A stretch of DNA of 8,580 nucleotides, taken from IMG/VR virus record IMGVR_UViG_2547132270_000009; one strand, written 5' to 3'. Each line of letters begins with the position of its first letter. The first letter of the stretch is position 1. Under the pieces are notes generated by a model. The model was not told the DNA's origin, ran no database searches, and was given only the letters and a program-made list of their open reading frames with translations. This DNA comes from a virus (Duplodnaviria > Heunggongvirae > Uroviricota > Caudoviricetes). Of this stretch, positions 440 to 8,580 are shown one piece after another. The translations under genes were made by a program, and so were the position numbers.

Positions 440-2245
440 TTAATTTTTTCCATCGTCATTTGTGACCGATGCACATGATGGCATCCAGTCTTCTGAATCC
501 TCTGTAAGGGTCACATTTGAACGCAAACCGTGCTTCGTTTTCCGTTTCATATACTCCCTGCCATATTCCGCCATTGCCCCCGGCATATCTTTACCGAAGC
601 GCGTCAGTGTTACAGGTTTACCGAATCCGTGTGCCCTCATATATGCCAGATAGGCGTGATAAAGATACCTGCGCGGACTGAACGGAATAATTTCGGCATT
701 ACCCACTAACAGACCATCACACATTACCGACGACATGAGATAGCCGCAGAAGTCCACCAGCGAATCGCCCTCGCGTTTTATCACCAGTGCTTCTTCTGAT
801 TTCTGCTGCTCATACAGCAGGCGTTTAGCTTCGTCCTGGTCAGAAAAACGAGTAAGCAGGTGGCGAATCACAACCGCCAGCTCTCCTTCTATTTTTTCTG
901 CCAGCATGGGGTCGCGTTCGTTTTCCGGTACAACCTCCGAAAAATTGAATATCACCCGACGACGTGAGATCCCCCCGCTGCGGTCACTGAATGACATGGC
1001 GTTATTGTTCACCGCCAGCACGACCGCCTGAATGCGTGTTGAGTAGGGGGCTTTATGCTTCGGGTCGATTGCCACCTTGTCACCGCCTGTAATGGCCTTA
1101 ATTCCTGCGCCATCACCAGCGTAGCGGGTCATATCCGGCATGATAATCAGCGAAAATCCAACCACTAACGCGCGTTCCCTGGCATCTTCCAGCGCCTTCA
1201 TGCTTGCCGATACCGTGTTGGCCTTACCCGCCAGCATGGTGCAAATCTCCGCCATTACGCTTTTACCGCTTCCACCCGGCCCCGTTACCTCAAGAAATAA
1301 CTGCCAGTCGTATCGGTTCGCCAGCACCATGAATAACGCCGCCAGTACGCGATCCGCTTTACGGTCATTCTCAGCCACCGAACGGCGCAACCATTTCCAG
1401 AAATTCGGCGCATGCGTTGCCAGCGTTTCCCCCTCTGCTGGCGGGCTGAACGGTAATTCACTGGCAATTAACAGCCAGTCGTTTTTGTCATGCTCCCGAA
1501 AATCGCCTGTCCGGGTATCAAAAACACCGTTACTGAATCCAATCAGGTTACGGGCGGTATTCCCCATTACGGGCAAACTTAACTTCATTGTATCGACCGC
1601 CGATTTGATGGCGTTCTGCGAATAACTGATCTCCGCATCAATAAAAATCTGCGCCATAGCCCGCTGTAACTCTTTATCCTGTACCGGCTCCCATACAACG
1701 CCGTTGTAGTGGTGAACGGTGTCAGAGTCCGCATTGATTGCCAGTTCACCGCCATAACGTGCCAGGAGAACTTCGCCGCGCTGGCTTGCTCCCATCTGGT
1801 TAAGCGCCAGTGGTGCGGCGCTGTCTTCTGTTTTTTTCTTAACAGGAAGCTGAATAACCAGACCATCAGAAAGATTCTGGCGCTCACGCTCCAGATATTC
1901 GTGCCAGTTCTCCCGCTTCTGGCTGTGCATTCCCTCAGGGTAATAATTCGCATCCCGTACACCTGCCACCGCCAGCTTTTGCCCGATGGCATTAATATTT
2001 GACGGCTTGATGTGGCCTGCCTTGTACAGCCGGACACAATAGCGACCATCGTCGATAATTTTCAGGCCTGCCAGTTCGTCAAGCTGGCTGTCTCCCAGCC
2101 ATACAGGCGGAACATTGTCGCCAGCAAGTCGCCCGTCCTGCTCCTGCCATTGTTTCGCGTGCGCCCAGGCATCACTACCCGCAAAAATAATGACTTCGGT
2201 CATTTTGTCGTGCGGCTGTTTTTTCAGATTCGGTGCCAGTTTCAT
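440..2245 (-). CDS. replication protein, SF3-family helicase / primase-like (P4 alpha-like or PICI Pri-Rep-like), 601 aa
   Basis: 601-aa ORF with AGGGG Shine-Dalgarno 6 nt before the ATG at 2245. Walker A VTGPGGSGKS, Walker B-like SLIIMPDM, SF3 motif C VVLAVNNN and an arginine finger region SRRRVIFNF are all visible in the translation. Adjacent iteron array fits an initiator and its origin. Confidence 0.85.
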   Translation of the reverse strand: MKLAPNLKKQPHDKMTEVIIFAGSDAWAHAKQWQEQDGRLAGDNVPPVWLGDSQLDELAGLKIIDDGRYCVRLYKAGHIKPSNINAIGQKLAVAGVRDANYYPEGMHSQKRENWHEYLERERQNLSDGLVIQLPVKKKTEDSAAPLALNQMGASQRGEVLLARYGGELAINADSDTVHHYNGVVWEPVQDKELQRAMAQIFIDAEISYSQNAIKSAVDTMKLSLPVMGNTARNLIGFSNGVFDTRTGDFREHDKNDWLLIASELPFSPPAEGETLATHAPNFWKWLRRSVAENDRKADRVLAALFMVLANRYDWQLFLEVTGPGGSGKSVMAEICTMLAGKANTVSASMKALEDARERALVVGFSLIIMPDMTRYAGDGAGIKAITGGDKVAIDPKHKAPYSTRIQAVVLAVNNNAMSFSDRSGGISRRRVIFNFSEVVPENERDPMLAEKIEGELAVVIRHLLTRFSDQDEAKRLLYEQQKSEEALVIKREGDSLVDFCGYLMSSVMCDGLLVGNAEIIPFSPRRYLYHAYLAYMRAHGFGKPVTLTRFGKDMPGAMAEYGREYMKRKTKHGLRSNVTLTEDSEDWMPSCASVTNDDGKN

Positions 2246-2541
2246 TTTTTGCCCCTGAATGCGTTAATCATGCTTTTCATTTTCTGAATATTTGCCCGTG
2301 CCTTTGCGTTGCTGGTGGGCTGTTTGCGTGGTGTGGCCTGTATCAGTGAAAAATCACGCCGGAACTGATAAACAGGCATCACGCAGTCGTAGCCGTACCC
2401 ATCACGGCGGTAAGTAACGCACCGTCCGGCAATACTTTTAATCGTTACCGTGCCACCGTAGTTATCCCGGAAAATATCGCCGGGGCGGATTTCAGGCCGA
2501 GCGGGGCCGCTGGCAGTAAAGCCAGAATTTTTCTTTTTCAT
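2242..2541 (-). CDS. hypothetical small protein (99 aa), translationally coupled to the helicase gene
   Basis: ATG at 2541; its stop overlaps the helicase start as ATGA (2242-2245). Basic C-terminus. Fourth of five small genes in the operon. No family recognised. Confidence 0.55.
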   Translation of the reverse strand: MKKKNSGFTASGPARPEIRPGDIFRDNYGGTVTIKSIAGRCVTYRRDGYGYDCVMPVYQFRRDFSLIQATPRKQPTSNAKARANIQKMKSMINAFRGKK

Positions 2542-2545
2542 GGTT

Positions 2546-2746
2546 TTATTTTCCTGTCAGTGATTCCGGTTTTATTCCGGCGCGAATACAGGCTTCAGAA
2601 AAAAAAGCCAGAGAACCAACAACCTCATCATTTCTCAGTCGGCATTGTGATTTCACTTTCCCTTTATCCAGGTAAACCAGTACGCGTCCGGTGAAATCAT
2701 CTGGCACATTAAGCACTACGGGTACATGCGCTTCATGATTATGCAT
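2546..2746 (-). CDS. hypothetical small protein (66 aa)
   Basis: ATG at 2746 preceded by a GGAGGA Shine-Dalgarno; the start overlaps the upstream gene's stop by 8 nt (ATGCATAA). Ends 4 nt before the next start. Confidence 0.5.
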   Translation of the reverse strand: MHNHEAHVPVVLNVPDDFTGRVLVYLDKGKVKSQCRLRNDEVVGSLAFFSEACIRAGIKPESLTGK

Positions 2747-2972
2747 GGCTTACATCCTCCGTGAATTTTCTTCTGTAACGCGTCTCTGCCACATATTCCG
2801 CATAGTCCGACGCAATACTAAGAATCATTTCACCCTCTGACTTGTAGCCACTGGTATTGATAAGAAAATATGCAGCTTTCATCATGTCAGCAACGCTCAA
2901 CAATGCGCCCGCTGCATCTTCCGGTGCGCCATCAAATTCCCGTTTCAGGGAATTAAAACGATCATCACGCAT
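2739..2972 (-). CDS. hypothetical small protein (77 aa); may be the downstream half of a frameshifted larger gene
   Basis: ATG at 2972 lies 2 nt downstream of a G9 run (coding-strand G, plus-strand C at 2975-2983) that could serve as a Shine-Dalgarno. Acidic, helical-looking protein. Confidence 0.5.
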   Translation of the reverse strand: MRDDRFNSLKREFDGAPEDAAGALLSVADMMKAAYFLINTSGYKSEGEMILSIASDYAEYVAETRYRRKFTEDVSHA

Positions 2973-3205
2973 AACCCCCCCCCATTTTCACAATCAGCAA
3001 TCAGGATAGCCCTGGCCTCATTCAGTGCCATATCAGCGGTAAGCTGTGCGTAAGCCAGCGAATGCGGGATTATCGCCCCTGTATATTCCGTCTCTCTGGT
3101 AATGTGTTTTTCTGCGGTTGCTGCCGTGCATGAAATATCAATCAGCGCGTGCATCAGCGTTTTGATGGCTTCGGCGGCTGCGCCCGGACGGGTGTTATTG
3201 CACAT
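2945..3205 (-). CDS. hypothetical small protein (86 aa as read); reads through the G9 tract and stops shortly after
   Basis: ATG at 3205 with AGGGGGTG Shine-Dalgarno; overlaps the Icd-like stop by 8 nt (ATGTGCAATAA). Ends CENGGGLCVMIVLIP. The first ATG of the raw ORF (3247) is rejected because it overlaps the Icd-like gene. Confidence 0.45.
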   Translation of the reverse strand: MCNNTRPGAAAEAIKTLMHALIDISCTAATAEKHITRETEYTGAIIPHSLAYAQLTADMALNEARAILIADCENGGGLCVMIVLIP

Positions 3206-3395
3206 GATGCACCCCCTGACGAATACGGGCGGCGAATACAGCGACACAACCGGACGGGCAACGGTTACGCGCTTCGCGTTCTGTCCAGGCGGTCACGTGG
3301 ATAATTTGAGAATCTCCGGCACTCAGTGCCAGAAAACGCCACACAAAGGCGGTTTGTGTGTGCGCTAGTCGTGGGGTATGCTGTCTTACAGCCAT
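3195..3395 (-). CDS. Icd-like small protein (P4 kil/icd-type host cell division inhibitor family), 66 aa
   Basis: ATG at 3395 with GAGGTAA Shine-Dalgarno 5 nt upstream. Translation MAVRQHTPRLAHTQTAFVWRFLALSAGDSQIIHVTAWTEREARNRCPSGCVAVFAARIRQGVHHVQ fits the F-W-R-F ... EREAR ... AARI pattern I recall for Icd-like proteins of P4-like elements. First gene of the minus-strand operon. Confidence 0.6.
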   Translation of the reverse strand: MAVRQHTPRLAHTQTAFVWRFLALSAGDSQIIHVTAWTEREARNRCPSGCVAVFAARIRQGVHHVQ

Positions 3396-3496
3396 AATCG
3401 TTACCTCATTTAACGGTTTGGTTAGAAGCCCCGTTACTGCTCCAACAGTGCGGGGCTTCGTCGTTTCAATTGCTGAATTGCATGTATCAGCCCTTG

Positions 3497-3550
3497 TGGT
3501 ATTCAGATTACATTTTGGTGAATACCAGTTCAAGTCTTTTTTGGTATTCA
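3497..3550. promoter_or_regulatory. divergent promoter/operator region: three TGGTATTCA sites and a candidate sigma70 promoter for the minus-strand operon
   Basis: TGGTATTCA at 3497-3505 (direct), 3519-3527 (inverted) and 3542-3550 (direct); the first two form an inverted repeat with a 13-bp spacer. On the minus strand, -35 TTGAAC (plus 3528-3533), 17-bp spacer, -10 TAATCT (plus 3505-3510) overlap these sites. Confidence 0.4.
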
Positions 3551-3594
3551 CTTTTGTATTACACTGCATCCCGTTATTAATCGGAGGTGCAAAC

Positions 3595-3900
3595 ATGTCC
3601 ACGAGTTCTGTTAACAATAAGTCACAGCAACTGAATGCCAGATTTCCACATGAAGTAGTGAGTGGCATTGAGGCATCCCTACAGCCTGGGGAAACTAAAG
3701 CGAATTTTATAGTTACGGCTGTACGCGGTGAAATCGCCCGCCGCCAAGCAGAAGGAAGAGGAGAAAATCCCCTGGTTTCTTCGCTCGATGCACTGGCGCA
3801 GGTGGAAAAAATCGGTGTCAAAGCAGCCGAGGAGATCGGGCAACTCGTCACCGTCGCGCGTGAAGAACTCCAGCGCCGCAAGGCCAAAGAACAGGAGTAG
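3595..3900 (+). CDS. ribbon-helix-helix DNA-binding protein, YlcI/YnfO (DUF3950)-like; candidate regulator of the element
   Basis: ATG at 3595 with GGAGGTG Shine-Dalgarno; 101 aa. N-terminal LNARFPHEVVSGIEASL...KANFIVTAVRGEIARR fits the RFP...NF...RR pattern of YlcI/YnfO-type proteins; charged helical C-terminus. It is the only + strand gene inside the element, divergent from the operon. Confidence 0.7.
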   Translation: MSTSSVNNKSQQLNARFPHEVVSGIEASLQPGETKANFIVTAVRGEIARRQAEGRGENPLVSSLDALAQVEKIGVKAAEEIGQLVTVAREELQRRKAKEQE

Positions 3901-4394
3901 TTGATCAGCACCGGGCGCCCAGAAAAAATCGTATCAGTCGCGCCACCAGCAAAATTTTTTGCTTTCCGGACAGCGTGGCCAACGACATTTTGCAGCAAAA
4001 TATTCTGCATTTCTGGCGTGCTGTAGTAACGGTGATCAGCGCCTTCACATTGAACGAACTTGTCGCTAAAATTCACCCATATAGCAAACATCGCGGTGCT
4101 GTAGGTAATTCGTTCACAAAGGCGCTCCGGCAACGGGGCGCTTTTTGTTTTTATTAGTTTGTAGAAACCTGACTCAGAGATAATGCTCATATTCTGATTG
4201 CCGTCAGGGGTGTAAGTTAAATTTACTCCCTTTTTATCATCAAACATCTGCAACGCTCTGGCGTTAACAATATTGGTTTCACTCCCGCCAGTAAGGCCGG
4301 AAATAACCGGAATAATTTCGGCAAAATTTTGCAGATTCTGTTTTTCAGGACGAACGAAGCCCCGCCCTTGTTCGGGAGAATATCCAGTATTCAT
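3900..4394 (-). CDS. Bro-N-like (antirepressor-type) protein; 3' end unresolved, possibly a pseudogene
   Basis: ATG at 4394. The first 120 or so residues contain Bro-N-like blocks (FDDKKGV...NMSIISESGFYKLIKTKSAPLPERL). The frame has no stop until 3195, running antisense through the RHH gene and into the Icd-like gene, so the real C-terminus cannot be set from sequence; 3900 is an approximate boundary. Both other minus frames hit stops near 3903-3930. Confidence 0.35.
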
Positions 4395-4446
4395 GGTTAG
4401 ATCTCTGTATTAGTGGATGGGTGGCGGCTGTGTGCCGCCAGCCTGA

Positions 4447-4635
4447 TTAGTGAACTGCCTCGCAGCTTTCCTTCCATGCCAGAACTTCGGATAAAGACCA
4501 GCCAACGGAACGACCGCCGAGCTTACGCCGTGATGGGAATTGTCCGGTTTTTTCCAGGCGGTACCGACATGAACGGCTCAGGCCTGTAAGTTGCTGACAT
4601 TCTTTTTCACGTATAAAGCGATCTGTGCTTAACAC
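4447..4635 (-). CDS. alpA: AlpA-family phage regulatory protein (excisionase/activator-like), 62 aa
   Basis: GTG at 4635 preceded by an AGGGGGA Shine-Dalgarno. Translation ...ECQQLTGLSRSCRYRLEKTGQFPSRRKLGGRSVGWSLSEVLAWKE fits the AlpA helix-turn-helix pattern. Upstream in-frame ATGs (up to 4803) lack a ribosome-binding site. Confidence 0.8.
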   Translation of the reverse strand: MLSTDRFIREKECQQLTGLSRSCRYRLEKTGQFPSRRKLGGRSVGWSLSEVLAWKESCEAVH

Positions 4636-4930
4636 AATTCCCCCTTTGATATTTCTTAAAGAGTTATTTGGTGTCCTATTGTGTTGTGGTGCGTCGGATT
4701 GTGTCAGGGTGTTTATGGAATGGCAAACACTGGCGGCGGTCATTTTACAGAAGTGTGGTAATGAGAATAAAAACTCTTTTAATTCATTGTGGTGCAAAGG
4801 CATAAAATTCTGTTTTTACGCCTTTTTTACATGTTTTTAAGAGTGATTCGCCAATGTACAAAAAGCCAGTAAAACGACTGAAAATCAACTTTTTAGGGTG
4901 TCAGTCAGATGTTAATCAAGTTTGTTCCAG

Positions 4931-4980
4931 ATTGTTCGCCGTTGTTCGTCGTGGTGTCTCGTTGTTTCACGTTGTGTCAG
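4931..4980. repeat. five tandem degenerate 10-bp repeats (consensus GTTGTTCGYC) just downstream of the integrase stop
   Basis: Consecutive 10-mers attgttcgcc / gttgttcgtc / gtggtgtctc / gttgtttcac / gttgtgtcag at 4931-4980, one helical turn apart. On the minus strand they read as GAACAA-type motifs. Related GTGTCAG motifs at 4701-4707 and 4897-4903. Confidence 0.5.
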
Positions 4981-5002
4981 TTCTAAAAAATCGCAAAAAA
5001 AA

Positions 5003-6250
5003 TTATATTTCTCTGGCTATTGGCAGTGTGGTTACGTTTTTGTGAGTACCCGCCAGTATCTCTAACCGCTCTGTCCACATGTCCAGCGCATTACGTTTCG
5101 CATCGAGATAACGGGAGTGGTTATAGACTCGCTGCATCCCTGGCATCTGGTGAGCGGTGAGTTGTTCGACAATATGCGGATCCACGCCTAAATCGTTCAG
5201 CATCGTGGTAAACGTGCGCCGTATATCGTGTAGTGACCAGTGCGGATGGTTTAATTTTTTGTGCATGAATCTGCCGTATTGCGACACACTGGCTTCCTGT
5301 TTCAGTTCCCCGAGTAATAGCCCTGTGTGTCTGTTCTGCTCCACCAGCTGCGTGACGAACGGTAAAATGCTTTCCGGTATTGGCCTGAATATGGCGACCT
5401 TCGTTTTGCTGTGCTCTTTCGGTACTGTCCAGAGCATTTCCTTAAAATCCCACTCCCTGATCTCCGATAATCTCAGTTCTCCGGTTCGGCAGCCGAACAC
5501 AATCAGGAGGCGGATTAGTGCGCTGTAGTAGGGCGGGAATATTTTTTTATCCAGCGCCTGTAATAATTCGCCAAGTTCTTTGTTGCTCAGCACGCGTTCG
5601 CTTATGCCTGGTTTTTTGCCAACGTCCACCACGTTAAGATCATCCAGAACGTTACTGACTGCGTAGCGACGTTTACGGCAGAACTTAAGCGCCTGTTTAC
5701 ACGCCTGCATCATGTGACCAGACGTTACAGGGGATTTTTTGCGTATCCGGTCAAAACAGGCCAGCCAGTGACGTAACTCGCATTTATCCAGTGGCATATT
5801 GCCAATATGCTGTATGACGTGATTATTCAGGCGGCTTTTCAGGCATACGTAATCGACACGGTTTTCCTTTACGTGCATTTCCAGCCAGTAGCTGATCGCA
5901 TCACCCACCGTTACCGGCTTTAGTGCTTCCTGTATGGAGTAATTAAGCTCATGGCGTGGATTTTTTCCTTCTGCCAGCCATGCGCGACACTGTGCCGCTT
6001 TTTCCCTGGCTGCTTTCAGGCTCAGATCAGGATAATTTCCCAGCTTCAGGCGTTCCGGTGATACCTGGCGTCCAGCTCCTGCCCTGTAGGTGAAATACCA
6101 GGTTAACAAGCCGCTGGTGGAATGCCTGACGCTCAGGTTTCCACCGTCATTAAGAAATGTGGTTTTTGGGGCTGGTGTGCCGTTGATTTTTCTTAGCTGT
6201 GTATCGCTCAGTTTGTTAAGTGCTCTGCTCATAATTTTGAATCCGGTCAT
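5003..6250 (-). CDS. int: tyrosine-type site-specific integrase, P4-like family
   Basis: About 415 aa. N-terminal arm-binding domain (DGGNLSVRHSTSGLLTWYFTYRAG...LGNYPDLSLKAAREKA) resembles P4-type integrases; C-terminal catalytic motifs HDIRRTF and YNHSRYLDAKR (tyrosine nucleophile). Start is ATG at 6250 or GTG at 6253; no strong Shine-Dalgarno for either. Confidence 0.93.
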   Translation of the reverse strand: MTGFKIMSRALNKLSDTQLRKINGTPAPKTTFLNDGGNLSVRHSTSGLLTWYFTYRAGAGRQVSPERLKLGNYPDLSLKAAREKAAQCRAWLAEGKNPRHELNYSIQEALKPVTVGDAISYWLEMHVKENRVDYVCLKSRLNNHVIQHIGNMPLDKCELRHWLACFDRIRKKSPVTSGHMMQACKQALKFCRKRRYAVSNVLDDLNVVDVGKKPGISERVLSNKELGELLQALDKKIFPPYYSALIRLLIVFGCRTGELRLSEIREWDFKEMLWTVPKEHSKTKVAIFRPIPESILPFVTQLVEQNRHTGLLLGELKQEASVSQYGRFMHKKLNHPHWSLHDIRRTFTTMLNDLGVDPHIVEQLTAHQMPGMQRVYNHSRYLDAKRNALDMWTERLEILAGTHKNVTTLPIAREI

Positions 6251-6254
6251 CACA

Positions 6255-6397: not shown

Positions 6398-6577
6398 TTA
6401 TAAAAATCCGCTATTGATAATGGCGCTGCGTACGCGATCACGCGCTTCCTTTACTGTCGTTTCTGGTAAGCCCACCATTGTTAATCCGGGTAGACCTTTG
6501 CTGATATGTACCTCAACAGTGATCGGCGGAGCATTTACTCCCAGAGCTGCGCGAGTATGAACAATTGATAGTGACAT
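6398..6577 (-). pseudogene. yifB: yifB/comM (Mg-chelatase-like AAA+ ATPase) 5' fragment, truncated after about 59 codons by the inserted element
   Basis: ATG at 6577 with GGAGGA Shine-Dalgarno. Translation MSLSIVHTRAALGVNAPPITVEVHISKGLPGLTMVGLPETTVKEARDRVRSAIINSG matches the YifB/ComM N-terminus from memory, then ends FL-stop at 6398-6400 where the full-length protein (about 500 aa) should continue. The junction is estimated at about 6400-6412. Confidence 0.8.
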
Positions 6578-6849
6578 AAGTCCTCCTTGAGTCACCATTA
6601 TGAACACAATCATTCGCTGCTGTAGCCAGCAAAATTACGACTTTTAGCGGCTGATTCCTGTTTATTTTTGCAATCGATATTGAGTTGTATTGGTGATGGA
6701 ATGATGCTCGCAAAAATGTTGCGGACAAATATTGAGCTGTTTTGTGGAGAACAAGAAACATACGGAAATTGAATTTTTTTCACTCTTCTTTTTTTATATA
6801 AAAAACAATGATCTCTATCGAAATTATTATGTGCATCATAAAAATCGGC

Positions 6850-6895
6850 CAAAAAATATCTTGTGTTATTCGCAAAATCTATGGTACCTCTTTAG
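6850..6895 (+). promoter_or_regulatory. ilvL-ilvG operon promoter region
   Basis: Candidate -35 TTGTGT (6861-6866) and -10-like TATGGT (6880-6885) 40-70 bp upstream of ilvL, but the spacing between them is only about 13 bp, so exact element assignment is uncertain. AT-rich upstream sequence (6760-6850) fits UP/IHF-type elements. Confidence 0.4.
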
Positions 6896-6929
6896 ACATT
6901 CCTTCGAACAAGATGCAAGAAAAGACAAA

Positions 6930-7028
6930 ATGACAGCCCTTCTACGAGTGATTAGCCTGGTCGTGATTAGCGTGGTGGTGATTATTATCCCACCGTGCGG
7001 GGCTGCACTTGGACGAGGAAAGGCTTAG
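6930..7028 (+). CDS. ilvL: ilvGMEDA operon leader peptide (32 aa)
   Basis: Translation MTALLRVISLVVISVVVIIIPPCGAALGRGKA, rich in Ile/Val/Leu control codons, recognised as the ilvL leader peptide; TAG stop at 7026-7028. Confidence 0.95.
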   Translation: MTALLRVISLVVISVVVIIIPPCGAALGRGKA

Positions 7029-7050
7029 AGATCAAGCCTTAACGAACTAA

Positions 7051-7085
7051 GACCCCCGCACCGAAAGGTCCGGGGGTTTTTTTTG
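7051..7085 (+). terminator. ilv attenuator, rho-independent terminator
   Basis: GC-rich stem ACCCCCG (7052-7058) pairing with CGGGGGT (7071-7077) around a GAAA loop, followed by a T-run (7077-7084), between ilvL and ilvX/ilvG. Confidence 0.9.
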
Positions 7086-7114
7086 ACCTTAAAAACATAA
7101 CCGAGGAGCAGGCA

Positions 7115-7165
7115 ATGAATAACAGCACAAAATTCTGTTTCTCAAGATTCAGGACGGGGAACTAA
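7115..7165 (+). CDS. ilvX: small protein IlvX (16 aa)
   Basis: ATG at 7115 after GAGGAGCAGG; translation [16 protein letters not shown] then TAA, matching the 16-aa IlvX small protein as I recall it; ends 2 nt before ilvG. Confidence 0.8.
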
Positions 7166-7167
7166 CT

Positions 7168-8580
7168 ATGAATGGCGCACAGTGGGTGGTACATGCGTTG
7201 CGGGCACAGGATGTGAACACCGTTTTCGGTTATCCGGGAGGCGCAATTATGCCGGTTTACGATGCATTGTATGACGGCGGCGTGGAACACTTGCTGTGCC
7301 GACATGAGCAGGGCGCGGCAATGGCGGCAATTGGCTATGCCCGTGCTACCGGCAAAACCGGCGTATGTATCGCCACGTCTGGTCCGGGTGCAACCAACCT
7401 GATAACCGGGCTTGCGGACGCGCTGTTAGATTCCATCCCTGTCGTTGCCATCACCGGTCAGGTGTCCGCACCGTTCATCGGCACCGACGCATTTCAGGAA
7501 GTGGATGTCCTGGGATTGTCATTAGCCTGTACCAAACACAGCTTCCTGGTACAGTCGCTGGAAGAGTTGCCACGCATCATGGCTGAAGCATTCGACGTTG
7601 CCCGCTCAGGCCGTCCTGGTCCGGTTCTGGTCGATATCCCAAAAGATATCCAGTTAGCCATCGGCGATCTGGAACCGTGGTTCACCACCGTTGAAAACGA
7701 AGTAACTTTTCCACATGCCGAAGTCGAGCAAGCGCGCCAGATGCTGGCAAAAGCGCAAAAACCGATGCTGTATGTTGGCGGCGGCGTAGGTATGGCACAG
7801 GCAGTTCCGGCTTTGCGTGAATTTCTCGCTGCCACAAAAATGCCTGCCACCTGCACGCTGAAAGGGCTGGGCGCAGTTGAAGCGGATTATCCGTACTATC
7901 TGGGGATGCTTGGGATGCACGGCACCAAAGCGGCGAACTTTGCGGTGCAGGAATGTGACCTGCTGATCGCTGTGGGCGCACGTTTTGATGACCGGGTAAC
8001 CGGCAAACTAAACACCTTCGCACCGCATGCCAGCGTTATCCATATGGATATCGACCCGGCAGAAATGAACAAGCTGCGTCAGGCGCATGTGGCATTACTG
8101 GGTGATTTAAATGCTCTGTTACCGGCATTACAGCAGCCGTTAAATATCAATGACTGGCAGCAGCACTGCGCGCAGCTGTGTAGTGAACATGCCTGGCGTT
8201 ACGACCATCCCGGAGACGCTATCTATGCGCCGTTGTTGTTAAAACAACTGTCGGATCGTAAACCTGCGGATTGCGTTGTGACCACAGATGTGGGGCAGCA
8301 CCAGATGTGGGCCGCGCAGCACATCGCCCACACTCGCCCGGAAAATTTCATCACTTCAAGCGGCTTAGGCACTATGGGTTTTGGTTTACCGGCGGCGGTT
8401 GGCGCACAAGTCGCACGACCGAACGATACCGTCGTTTGTATCTCTGGTGACGGCTCTTTCATGATGAATGTGCAAGAGCTGGGCACCGTAAAACGCAAGC
8501 AGTTACCGTTGAAAATCGTCTTACTCGATAACCAACGGTTAGGGATGGTTCGACAATGGCAGCAACTGTTTTTCCTGGAA
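7168..8580 (+). CDS. ilvG: acetolactate synthase II (AHAS II) large subunit, N-terminal 471 codons; continues past the window
   Basis: Translation [81 protein letters not shown]... is a thiamine-diphosphate enzyme recognised as IlvG. Frame is open from 7168 to the window end with no internal stop. Confidence 0.96.

Follow-up and report, generated by a model that had tools for sequence, protein, structure and literature searches.

The subject of this report is a long open reading frame (ORF) on the minus strand of IMG/VR virus record IMGVR_UViG_2547132270_000009, an 8,580-nucleotide stretch of Caudoviricetes DNA that we call the window throughout. The frame passes antisense through a complete regulator gene and its promoter region before it ends as a small gene of the Icd/Kil family. 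We propose, with a probability of roughly 65%, that this ORF is the counterpart of the nested eta and kil genes of phage P4, that is, an eta-like read-through frame. We favor this reading because the locus matches P4 in gene order, in its nesting, in a start near alpA, in an internal region of putative regulatory elements and in a product that looks unlike protein. The frame is kept open by selection and not by base composition, and what is selected is its translatability, not a protein. The elements on which the argument turns are the following.

3195..4394, minus strand: long eta-like frame with ATG at 4394, 399 codons, free of stops from 4412 to 3197.
3195..3395, minus strand: Icd/Kil-like gene of 66 amino acids with ATG at 3395, which forms the 3' end of the long ORF and shares its frame.
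3595..3900, plus strand: small regulator gene of the YlcI/YnfO family, 101 amino acids, wholly inside the long ORF and preceded by GGAGG at 3583-3587.
4118..4155, plus strand: intrinsic-terminator-like hairpin and T run inside the long ORF, a 12-pair stem followed by TGTTTTTATT.
4152..4394, minus strand: N-terminal scar, fused in frame at about 4150 to a conserved part that begins KSAPLPER.

From stop to stop the frame measures 404 codons, and the remaining two minus-strand frames contain 23 and 26 stops over the 4412-3197 span. When window positions 3001-4700 were resampled 2000 times with a first-order Markov model, the mean length of the longest open run, over all frames, was 128 codons, and no resample gave more than 302. 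Followed in order, the frame leads from an AntA/Bro-N-like start through the plus-strand terminator-like hairpin, the YlcI/YnfO gene and a 200-nt promoter/operator region into the Icd-like gene. A first-pass annotation of this DNA had described a 399-codon minus-strand frame without stop from 4394, and the ORF listing and the stop counts agree. Its further claim that the frame runs antisense through the whole of a ribbon-helix-helix (RHH) gene and the promoter region and finishes as an Icd-like gene is confirmed by profile matches: the regulator, called RHH at the time, matches NF041551 (60.3 bits, cut-off 30), and residues 16-59 of the short Icd-like protein match NF033153 (66.2 bits, cut-off 25). 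The start of the Icd-like gene had to be moved to the ATG at 3395. With this ATG and its own ribosome-binding site (GAGG at 3407-3404, 8 nt upstream), it indeed has a separate start, in keeping with that annotation. The regulator has the start context GGAGG-N7-ATG and is annotated by RefSeq in relatives. It resembles Pfam PSK_trans_fac weakly (E=0.025), and a PDB sequence search with it yielded chance matches alone.

The same frame is open in related loci, and modules of this kind are present in about 1500 E. coli genomes. One E. coli relative, L001, carries it at 398 codons. A second, L002, has an intact antA gene of 266 amino acids with a clean stop, and here a 597-codon frame starts from an ATG that overlaps the antA stop (GGAGGAAAACAGCCATGTGTAA), crosses the regulator gene and reaches the Icd-like stop. 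A database search with the 399-amino-acid translation returned 1856 proteins. The best 120 of these 1856 were all 271-598 amino acids long, many of them carrying the NCBI name Icd-like protein, and the promoter-region segments of the matches fell into at least seven highly different sequence types, all open. A list of protein matches is biased towards long ORFs, and we therefore gathered loci by similarity to the plus-strand regulator, without conditioning on the minus-strand frame. This sampling produced 12 genome, 78 metagenome and 80 viral-contig loci, 156 of them with enough flanking sequence, and included Enterobacter soli (396 codons), Morganella (331 codons), Proteus and Citrobacter. 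The antisense frame is open across the whole regulator gene in 154 of the 156 loci (53 of 54 sequence clusters) and in 115 of them (at least 33 of the 54 clusters) it continues in the same phase as far as the Icd-like stop. Frame length ranges from 195 to 819 codons across relatives, and the content is mosaic. Of 66 distinct start contexts, 31 have their first ATG -14 to +19 nt from the stop of an upstream co-oriented gene, be it alpA, antA, Bro-N or another. Such coupled starts are usually preceded by GGAGG, GAGGTG or AGGGGAG; examples are TAAAGGGGAGCATATG after alpA, GGAGGAAAACAGCCATG over the antA stop, and TGATG and TAATG overlaps in Morganella and Proteus.

Stop codons were counted by region, with each sequence cluster represented once.

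150 nt upstream of the regulator ATG (34 clusters; GC about 0.41, non-coding for the regulator): 8 stops in the long frame, 151 and 146 in the other minus-strand frames, 44-102 in the plus-strand frames.
Regulator gene (39 clusters): 1 stop in the long frame, 214 and 119 in the other minus-strand frames.
0-150 nt past the regulator stop (60 clusters): 35 stops in the long frame, 113 and 246 in the other minus-strand frames.
150-300 nt past the regulator stop (60 clusters): 61 stops in the long frame, 138 and 159 in the other minus-strand frames.

The weaker depletion past the regulator stop fits a frame that starts at variable upstream distances. Could such a pattern arise without selection for translation, as the shadow of a stop-poor antisense phase combined with conserved DNA motifs such as operators, hairpin and terminator? 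The antisense phase shares its third codon positions with the regulator, and a stop in it requires NNT-CAN or NNY-TAN in the sense strand; the phase is therefore naturally poor in stops. The regulator protein contains no Tyr and few His or Gln residues, a single gene has a probability of 0.15-0.5 of being open under synonymous nulls, and much of the promoter region consists of conserved DNA motifs. Against this explanation, 40 of 41 regulator variants are open in antisense, compared with 20 expected from synonymous permutation within each gene and 11 from resampling with E. coli codon usage (the codon table for the latter was entered by hand; the permutation null is independent of it). The promoter region is free of regulator coding constraint and varies greatly between sequence types, yet the long frame contains almost none of the stops seen in its neighbors. 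The depletion also extends 300 nt past the regulator stop, in mosaic sequence, and the frames begin with ribosome-binding sites at the stop of the upstream gene. We consider a mere shadow frame unlikely.

The second question is whether the frame encodes a genuine long protein. This would be an N-terminally extended Icd-like protein with a Bro-network N-terminus and a middle that is perhaps disordered, and the regulator region would be dual-coding. NCBI does name many forms of 320-530 amino acids Icd-like protein, two thirds of the clusters keep the in-frame link to Icd, and P4 eta is treated as a Bro-network protein gene in PMC10111431. The substitution pattern points elsewhere. Minimum numbers of substitutions at positions 1/2/3 of the long frame are 44/38/53 in the promoter region and 20/25/27 past the regulator stop, in both cases without codon periodicity. 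Within the regulator overlap they are 4/11/80, which corresponds to regulator codon positions 2/1/3 and is a normal coding pattern for the regulator. Because this pattern fits the regulator frame and not the antisense one, it is the regulator that is under protein-level selection; we can exclude that it is the mere shadow of a real protein gene on the minus strand. AlphaFold2 (AF2), given a 47-sequence alignment, returned a mean predicted local distance difference test score (pLDDT) of 36.8 and a predicted template modeling score of 0.21, with pLDDT below 50 for 347 of 399 residues. Residues 152-334 are without secondary structure at pLDDT below 50, and Pfam contains no domain match in the middle of the translation. 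The first-pass annotation was thus right to call the middle unlike protein. It had also set homologues with a conserved span of about 400 amino acids against its own view; such homologues exist as far as the open frame is concerned, and their protein sequence over this span is not conserved. Since length and content vary as described and a third of the clusters end before icd, we give a long protein little chance. The product of the eta-like frame is probably unimportant apart from its Icd-like end.

The N-terminal segment of the window's frame has a history of its own. In the translation, residues 1-49 show 76% identity with the beginning of the intact L002 AntA, and residues 42-81 show 81% identity with positions 57-98 of an intact BRO-N protein (192 amino acids) of locus L174 (E. 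coli B1-56). Neither Bro-N nor AntA is present as a full domain exceeding its Pfam threshold; just 40 and 49 residues, respectively, align to the intact relatives. Pfam Bro-N reaches E=0.081 (14 bits, cut-off 25.6) over profile positions 37-85 of 96, and the long-frame translation contains no Pfam match to AntA. The Bro-N-like N-terminus of the first-pass annotation is a real similarity, albeit a partial one whose score lies below the cut-off. After FYKLI, the KSAPLPER segment continues in frame and equals codon 11 onward of the eta-like ORF of L002. A deletion or recombination would have placed about 85 codons from an AntA/Bro-N chimera in front of, and in phase with, a pre-existing eta-like frame, so that translation would now begin at the old antA ATG, 52 nt after alpA. 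The frame is kept in several fusion variants (321, 350, 371, 398 and 399 codons). In L175, the closest relative for the N-terminal segment, a 396-codon frame ends about 40 nt before the icd ATG, which lies in another phase.

A rearrangement scar, one of the two origins suggested earlier, accordingly holds for the first 85 or so codons, which combine an AntA start with a Bro-N fragment while the rest of both genes is gone. The other suggestion was of separate genes and a Bro-N pseudogene with a lost stop, in which case the 1.2-kb continuity would stem from a deletion that by chance joined frames already open; it can cite the truncated chimera at the N-terminus, the blank that RefSeq leaves over this stretch in the closest relatives and the plus-strand terminator inside the ORF, but it is largely refuted and very improbable, because the frame is open downstream of the intact antA with its clean stop in L002 and in nearly all of the independently chosen relatives, including Enterobacter, Citrobacter, Morganella and Proteus, because 8 promoter-region stops against about 150 cannot be chance any more than a run that no Markov resample approached, and because 34-54 sequence clusters from several genera argue against a single recent clone. 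Overall, the earlier interpretation is partly supported: the long frame is a selected feature, and the scar merely shifted its start.

Several putative regulatory elements lie inside the long ORF in addition to the terminator-like hairpin.

3496..3551: three copies of GAATACCA, two of them forming an inverted pair (3542-3551 and 3518-3527), inside the long ORF.
3505..3533, minus strand: promoter-like TTGAAC-17-TAATCT, recognized by eye, with TTGA in all sequence types, the spacing kept and a repeat in the spacer.
3425..3459, plus strand: conserved hairpin of 14 bp, with the Icd-like ATG on one side and the putative operators on the other.
3373..3382, plus strand: -10-like element GGGGTATGCT inside codons 5-8 of the Icd-like gene, 42 nt before the hairpin.

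The terminator-like hairpin at 4118-4155 is likely the end of the regulator transcript. It coincides with the nearly invariant codons KSAPLPER in the 47-sequence alignment and directly follows the coupled start in antA-bearing relatives. Ribosomes entering at this coupled start would melt the weaker minus-strand version of the hairpin. The GAATACCA repeats are putative operators; in other sequence types, type-specific repeats occupy the same places and change in concert. The sequence at 3505-3533 would serve as a promoter internal to the long ORF, placed like PLE of P4; a strict promoter scan did not report this TTGAAC-17-TAATCT at 3533-3505.

The hairpin at 3425-3459 shows strong covariation. 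Across the alignment, 97% of the cells are paired, and 9 of the 14 pairs are altered on both sides. G-U cells number 42 on the plus strand and 2 on the minus strand, and the plus-strand fold is the more stable one in 32 of 33 variants. These substitutions indicate that the hairpin is selected as plus-strand RNA. A motif GGTAnnnT occurs in 45 of 51 representatives at a fixed distance of 41-43 nt from the hairpin, in forms that include TGGTATGAT, TGGTATAAT and GGGGTATGCT; it covers synonymous third codon positions of icd that never vary. The GGGGTATGCT element may act as a promoter. Its position suggests a plus-strand RNA that would begin near 3389 and be antisense to the ribosome-binding site and ATG of icd. 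This RNA could be short and extend no further than the hairpin, or it could be the regulator mRNA's leader, facing the internal minus-strand promoter. A whole-window Rfam scan (E<=1) assigned no family to the plus-strand hairpin RNA. An RsaJ match at 3426-3522 was far under the Rfam threshold and was discarded.

How, then, may this arrangement work? According to Mageeney et al. 2023 (PMC10111431), through whose summary we cite Forti et al. 1999 (J Bacteriol 181:5225), Kil of P4 is a truncated Eta. The same text states that Eta in its full length is translated from the upstream late promoter alone and that translating eta keeps termination from occurring, which lets the late promoter read through. 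AlpA is described as the activator of the rightward operon in Gram-negative phage-inducible chromosomal islands (PICIs; PMC10111431 and PMC6092414). By analogy with P4, transcripts from an upstream AlpA-dependent promoter would be translated along the long frame, and the travelling ribosomes would keep RNA polymerase from terminating, through Rho or at hairpins, on the long antisense stretch. Ribosomes on the long frame would also skip the ribosome-binding site of the Icd-like gene. Expression of Icd and of the replication genes downstream would thus not depend on the local immunity module. On transcripts from the internal promoter, by comparison, only the short Icd-like gene would be translated, under the control of the local module.

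A bolder version of this proposal is that this widespread PICI family has swapped the RNA immunity that P4 carries in eta for a module of protein and antisense RNA inside the frame, and that induction consists of translation working against convergent transcription. We advance it tentatively, as a possible scenario short of a probable one. The YlcI/YnfO gene would then encode the repressor, and its synonymous sites would be under constraint to leave the antisense strand readable by ribosomes. The plus-strand RNA would start in the first icd codons, cover the icd ribosome-binding site and carry the covarying hairpin. AlpA-driven translation of the antisense frame would contest the convergent transcription and the antisense RNA of the immunity module.

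Several observations weigh against the eta-like reading. That the frame is translated, and that this affects termination, is carried over from P4 by analogy; indirect support for the effect on termination is that the frame stays open while its product is not conserved. The start in the window is not stop-coupled, given the 52-nt gap from the alpA stop, and its ribosome-binding site is weak. The lack of stops across the regulator gene is partly a known property of the phase, a single gene being open with a probability of 0.15-0.3, and the clusters share ancestry, so that p-values based on independence are overstated. About one third of the clusters have a stop 83-209 nt past the regulator ATG or meet icd in another frame, and in roughly half of these broken clusters the stop closely follows the hairpin and precedes the icd ATG by a few tens of nt. 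Frames are thus often, but not necessarily, fused in phase to Icd. C4/CI and isrK RNAs were not found by Rfam in the whole window (E<=1). Finally, the GC skew gives but a weak sign of Rho utilization (rut) sites, with values of +0.06 to +0.19 for the plus strand at 3650-3900, which corresponds to a modest excess of C over G in the minus-strand RNA.

Under the bolder version, the overlap would be a selected one, in antisense across a full gene, with translation and not a protein as its function. The locus is a well-replicated case of a frame that stays open across an opposite-strand gene while the encoded sequence drifts, and it bears on the debate on antisense overlapping genes as well as on translation as protection from Rho. 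For the question of how Gram-negative PICIs are silenced, the locus offers a testable switch. Its four parts would be an AlpA-driven translated frame, an embedded divergent regulator with its operators, a promoter inside the frame, and a candidate antisense RNA that covers the Icd/Kil start. There is also a practical side. Current annotation is inconsistent, in that the region is given either as short Icd-like and YlcI/YnfO genes, or as an "Icd-like protein" of 320-600 amino acids, or is left blank; an eta-like frame would settle this choice. For L174, with 1896-2259 and 4472-5108 as the positions noted, PGAP calls a portion of the eta-like frame an incomplete hypothetical protein, and the island interrupts a phage terminase gene. 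In L002, between the regulator gene and antA, plus-strand ORFs at 3591-3770, 3828-4010 and 4080-4301 share the phase of the regulator, and one is annotated as a hypothetical protein; these ORFs at 3591-4301 are probably shadows of the 597-codon minus-strand frame and not genes.

The window carries one end of an integrated phage-satellite island, probably of the PICI/P4-like kind to judge from int, alpA, a Bro zone, icd, DUF4222, a primase and iterons. The late end of the island falls outside the window. Besides the genes listed above, it contains the following.

5003-6253, minus strand: integrase gene of the island.
4447..4803, minus strand: alpA (P4 vis family; Pfam Phage_AlpA, E=1.3e-17), directly upstream of the long frame.
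2945-3247, 2739-2972 and 2546-2746, minus strand: small ORFs of the island.
2242-2541, minus strand: DUF4222 gene of the island.
440-2245, minus strand: primase gene of the island.
220-400: iteron-like repeats, dense direct and inverted copies of GGTGAACAG/CTGTTCACC, just downstream of the primase gene.

In relatives, alpA is annotated from a GTG at 4635 (62 amino acids). Its frame in the window is open for 118 codons from an ATG, and the extra 56 codons are weakly conserved in a three-way alignment. The repeats at 220-400 are probably the iterons of the island's replication origin. Rfam matches to MIR821, MIR395 and MIR1508 at 220-399 are chance hits caused by these repeats. The island adjoins a 5' fragment of yifB/comM (magnesium-chelatase-like) and lies upstream of ilvL-ilvX-ilvG (6398-6613 and 6858-7148), and the ilv leader matches Rfam RF02744 with 156 bits. 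The insertion site is the same in L002; L001 and L175 instead adjoin abgR. No tRNA genes were found in the window, and the island is therefore not at a tRNA site. Two module junctions have an overlap motif CATGTG(C/T)AA in common, one between icd and the next gene in the window (3195-3215) and one between antA and the eta-like ORF in L002 (4440-4455). At both, ...H-V(-Q)-stop closes the upstream gene, and the following ORF begins with M-C-N inside the motif. These mosaic islands may share the motif as a joint for translational coupling or for recombination.

The closest parallel remains P4. In P4 (NC_001609), an ORF of 214 amino acids at 8168..8812 overlaps the 3' end of vis, an AlpA-family gene, by 49 nt, and its last 65 codons are Kil. 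In both systems, a gene of the Kil/Icd family is the in-frame 3' end of a far longer ORF. The ORF begins close to an alpA/vis homologue and includes a region with an internal promoter, in the window a putative one. The order alpA-ORF/icd-...-primase in the window mirrors vis-eta/kil-...-primase in P4, and in neither case does the product of the long frame look like a folded protein. NF033153 matches P4 Kil with 76 bits, compared with 66 for the Icd-like protein of the window (cut-off 25). This shared NCBIfam profile is the sole link between the two sequences: a tblastn search of phages with the Icd-like protein did not reach P4, and pairwise BLASTP against P4 Kil returned nothing. There are also differences. 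P4 eta contains the CI RNA gene and the seqA and seqB targets, whereas the frame in the window contains a complete antisense regulator gene with putative operators. The P4 frame has 214 codons, compared with 195-819 here, and it overlaps the alpA homologue, whereas translation in the window would start from the AntA/Bro-N scar.

Gram-negative PICIs, as described in PMC10111431 and PMC6092414, have int, alpA, domain-swapping Bro or AntA genes and replication genes in the same order as the window. Likewise, the island of L174 is inserted in the terminase large-subunit gene of a phage, like the helper-embedded PICIs of PMC10111431. The accounts in these two papers have transcription in one direction and leave the existence of a repressor open, in contrast to the oppositely oriented regulator of the window; a repressor of Gram-negative PICIs eluded Fillol-Salom et al. 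2018 (PMC6092414). The searched text of both papers contains no mention of an oppositely oriented YlcI/YnfO gene inside an eta-like frame. The antisense passage through a complete gene of this family appears undescribed in the literature searched. Literature on YlcI/YnfO and on P4 eta/kil yielded nothing more of relevance, and the EcCIMP1 paper deals with a different regulator.

A second parallel is provided by the immI operon of phages P1 and P7, which has the order c4 RNA - icd - ant. There, a division inhibitor of the Icd family is first in the operon, its translation start is targeted by RNA, and it is linked to an antirepressor gene; the c4 RNA comes from the same strand and acts in trans. 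The locus in the window resembles immI in having an Icd-family gene, a candidate RNA at the translation start of this gene, and a linked antirepressor gene. Unlike the situation in immI, the candidate RNA would be cis-antisense and lacks an Rfam match to C4, and the antirepressor lies upstream instead of downstream. What sets the eta-like frame apart from the known kind is that it overlaps a full regulator gene in antisense and constrains the synonymous sites of that gene.

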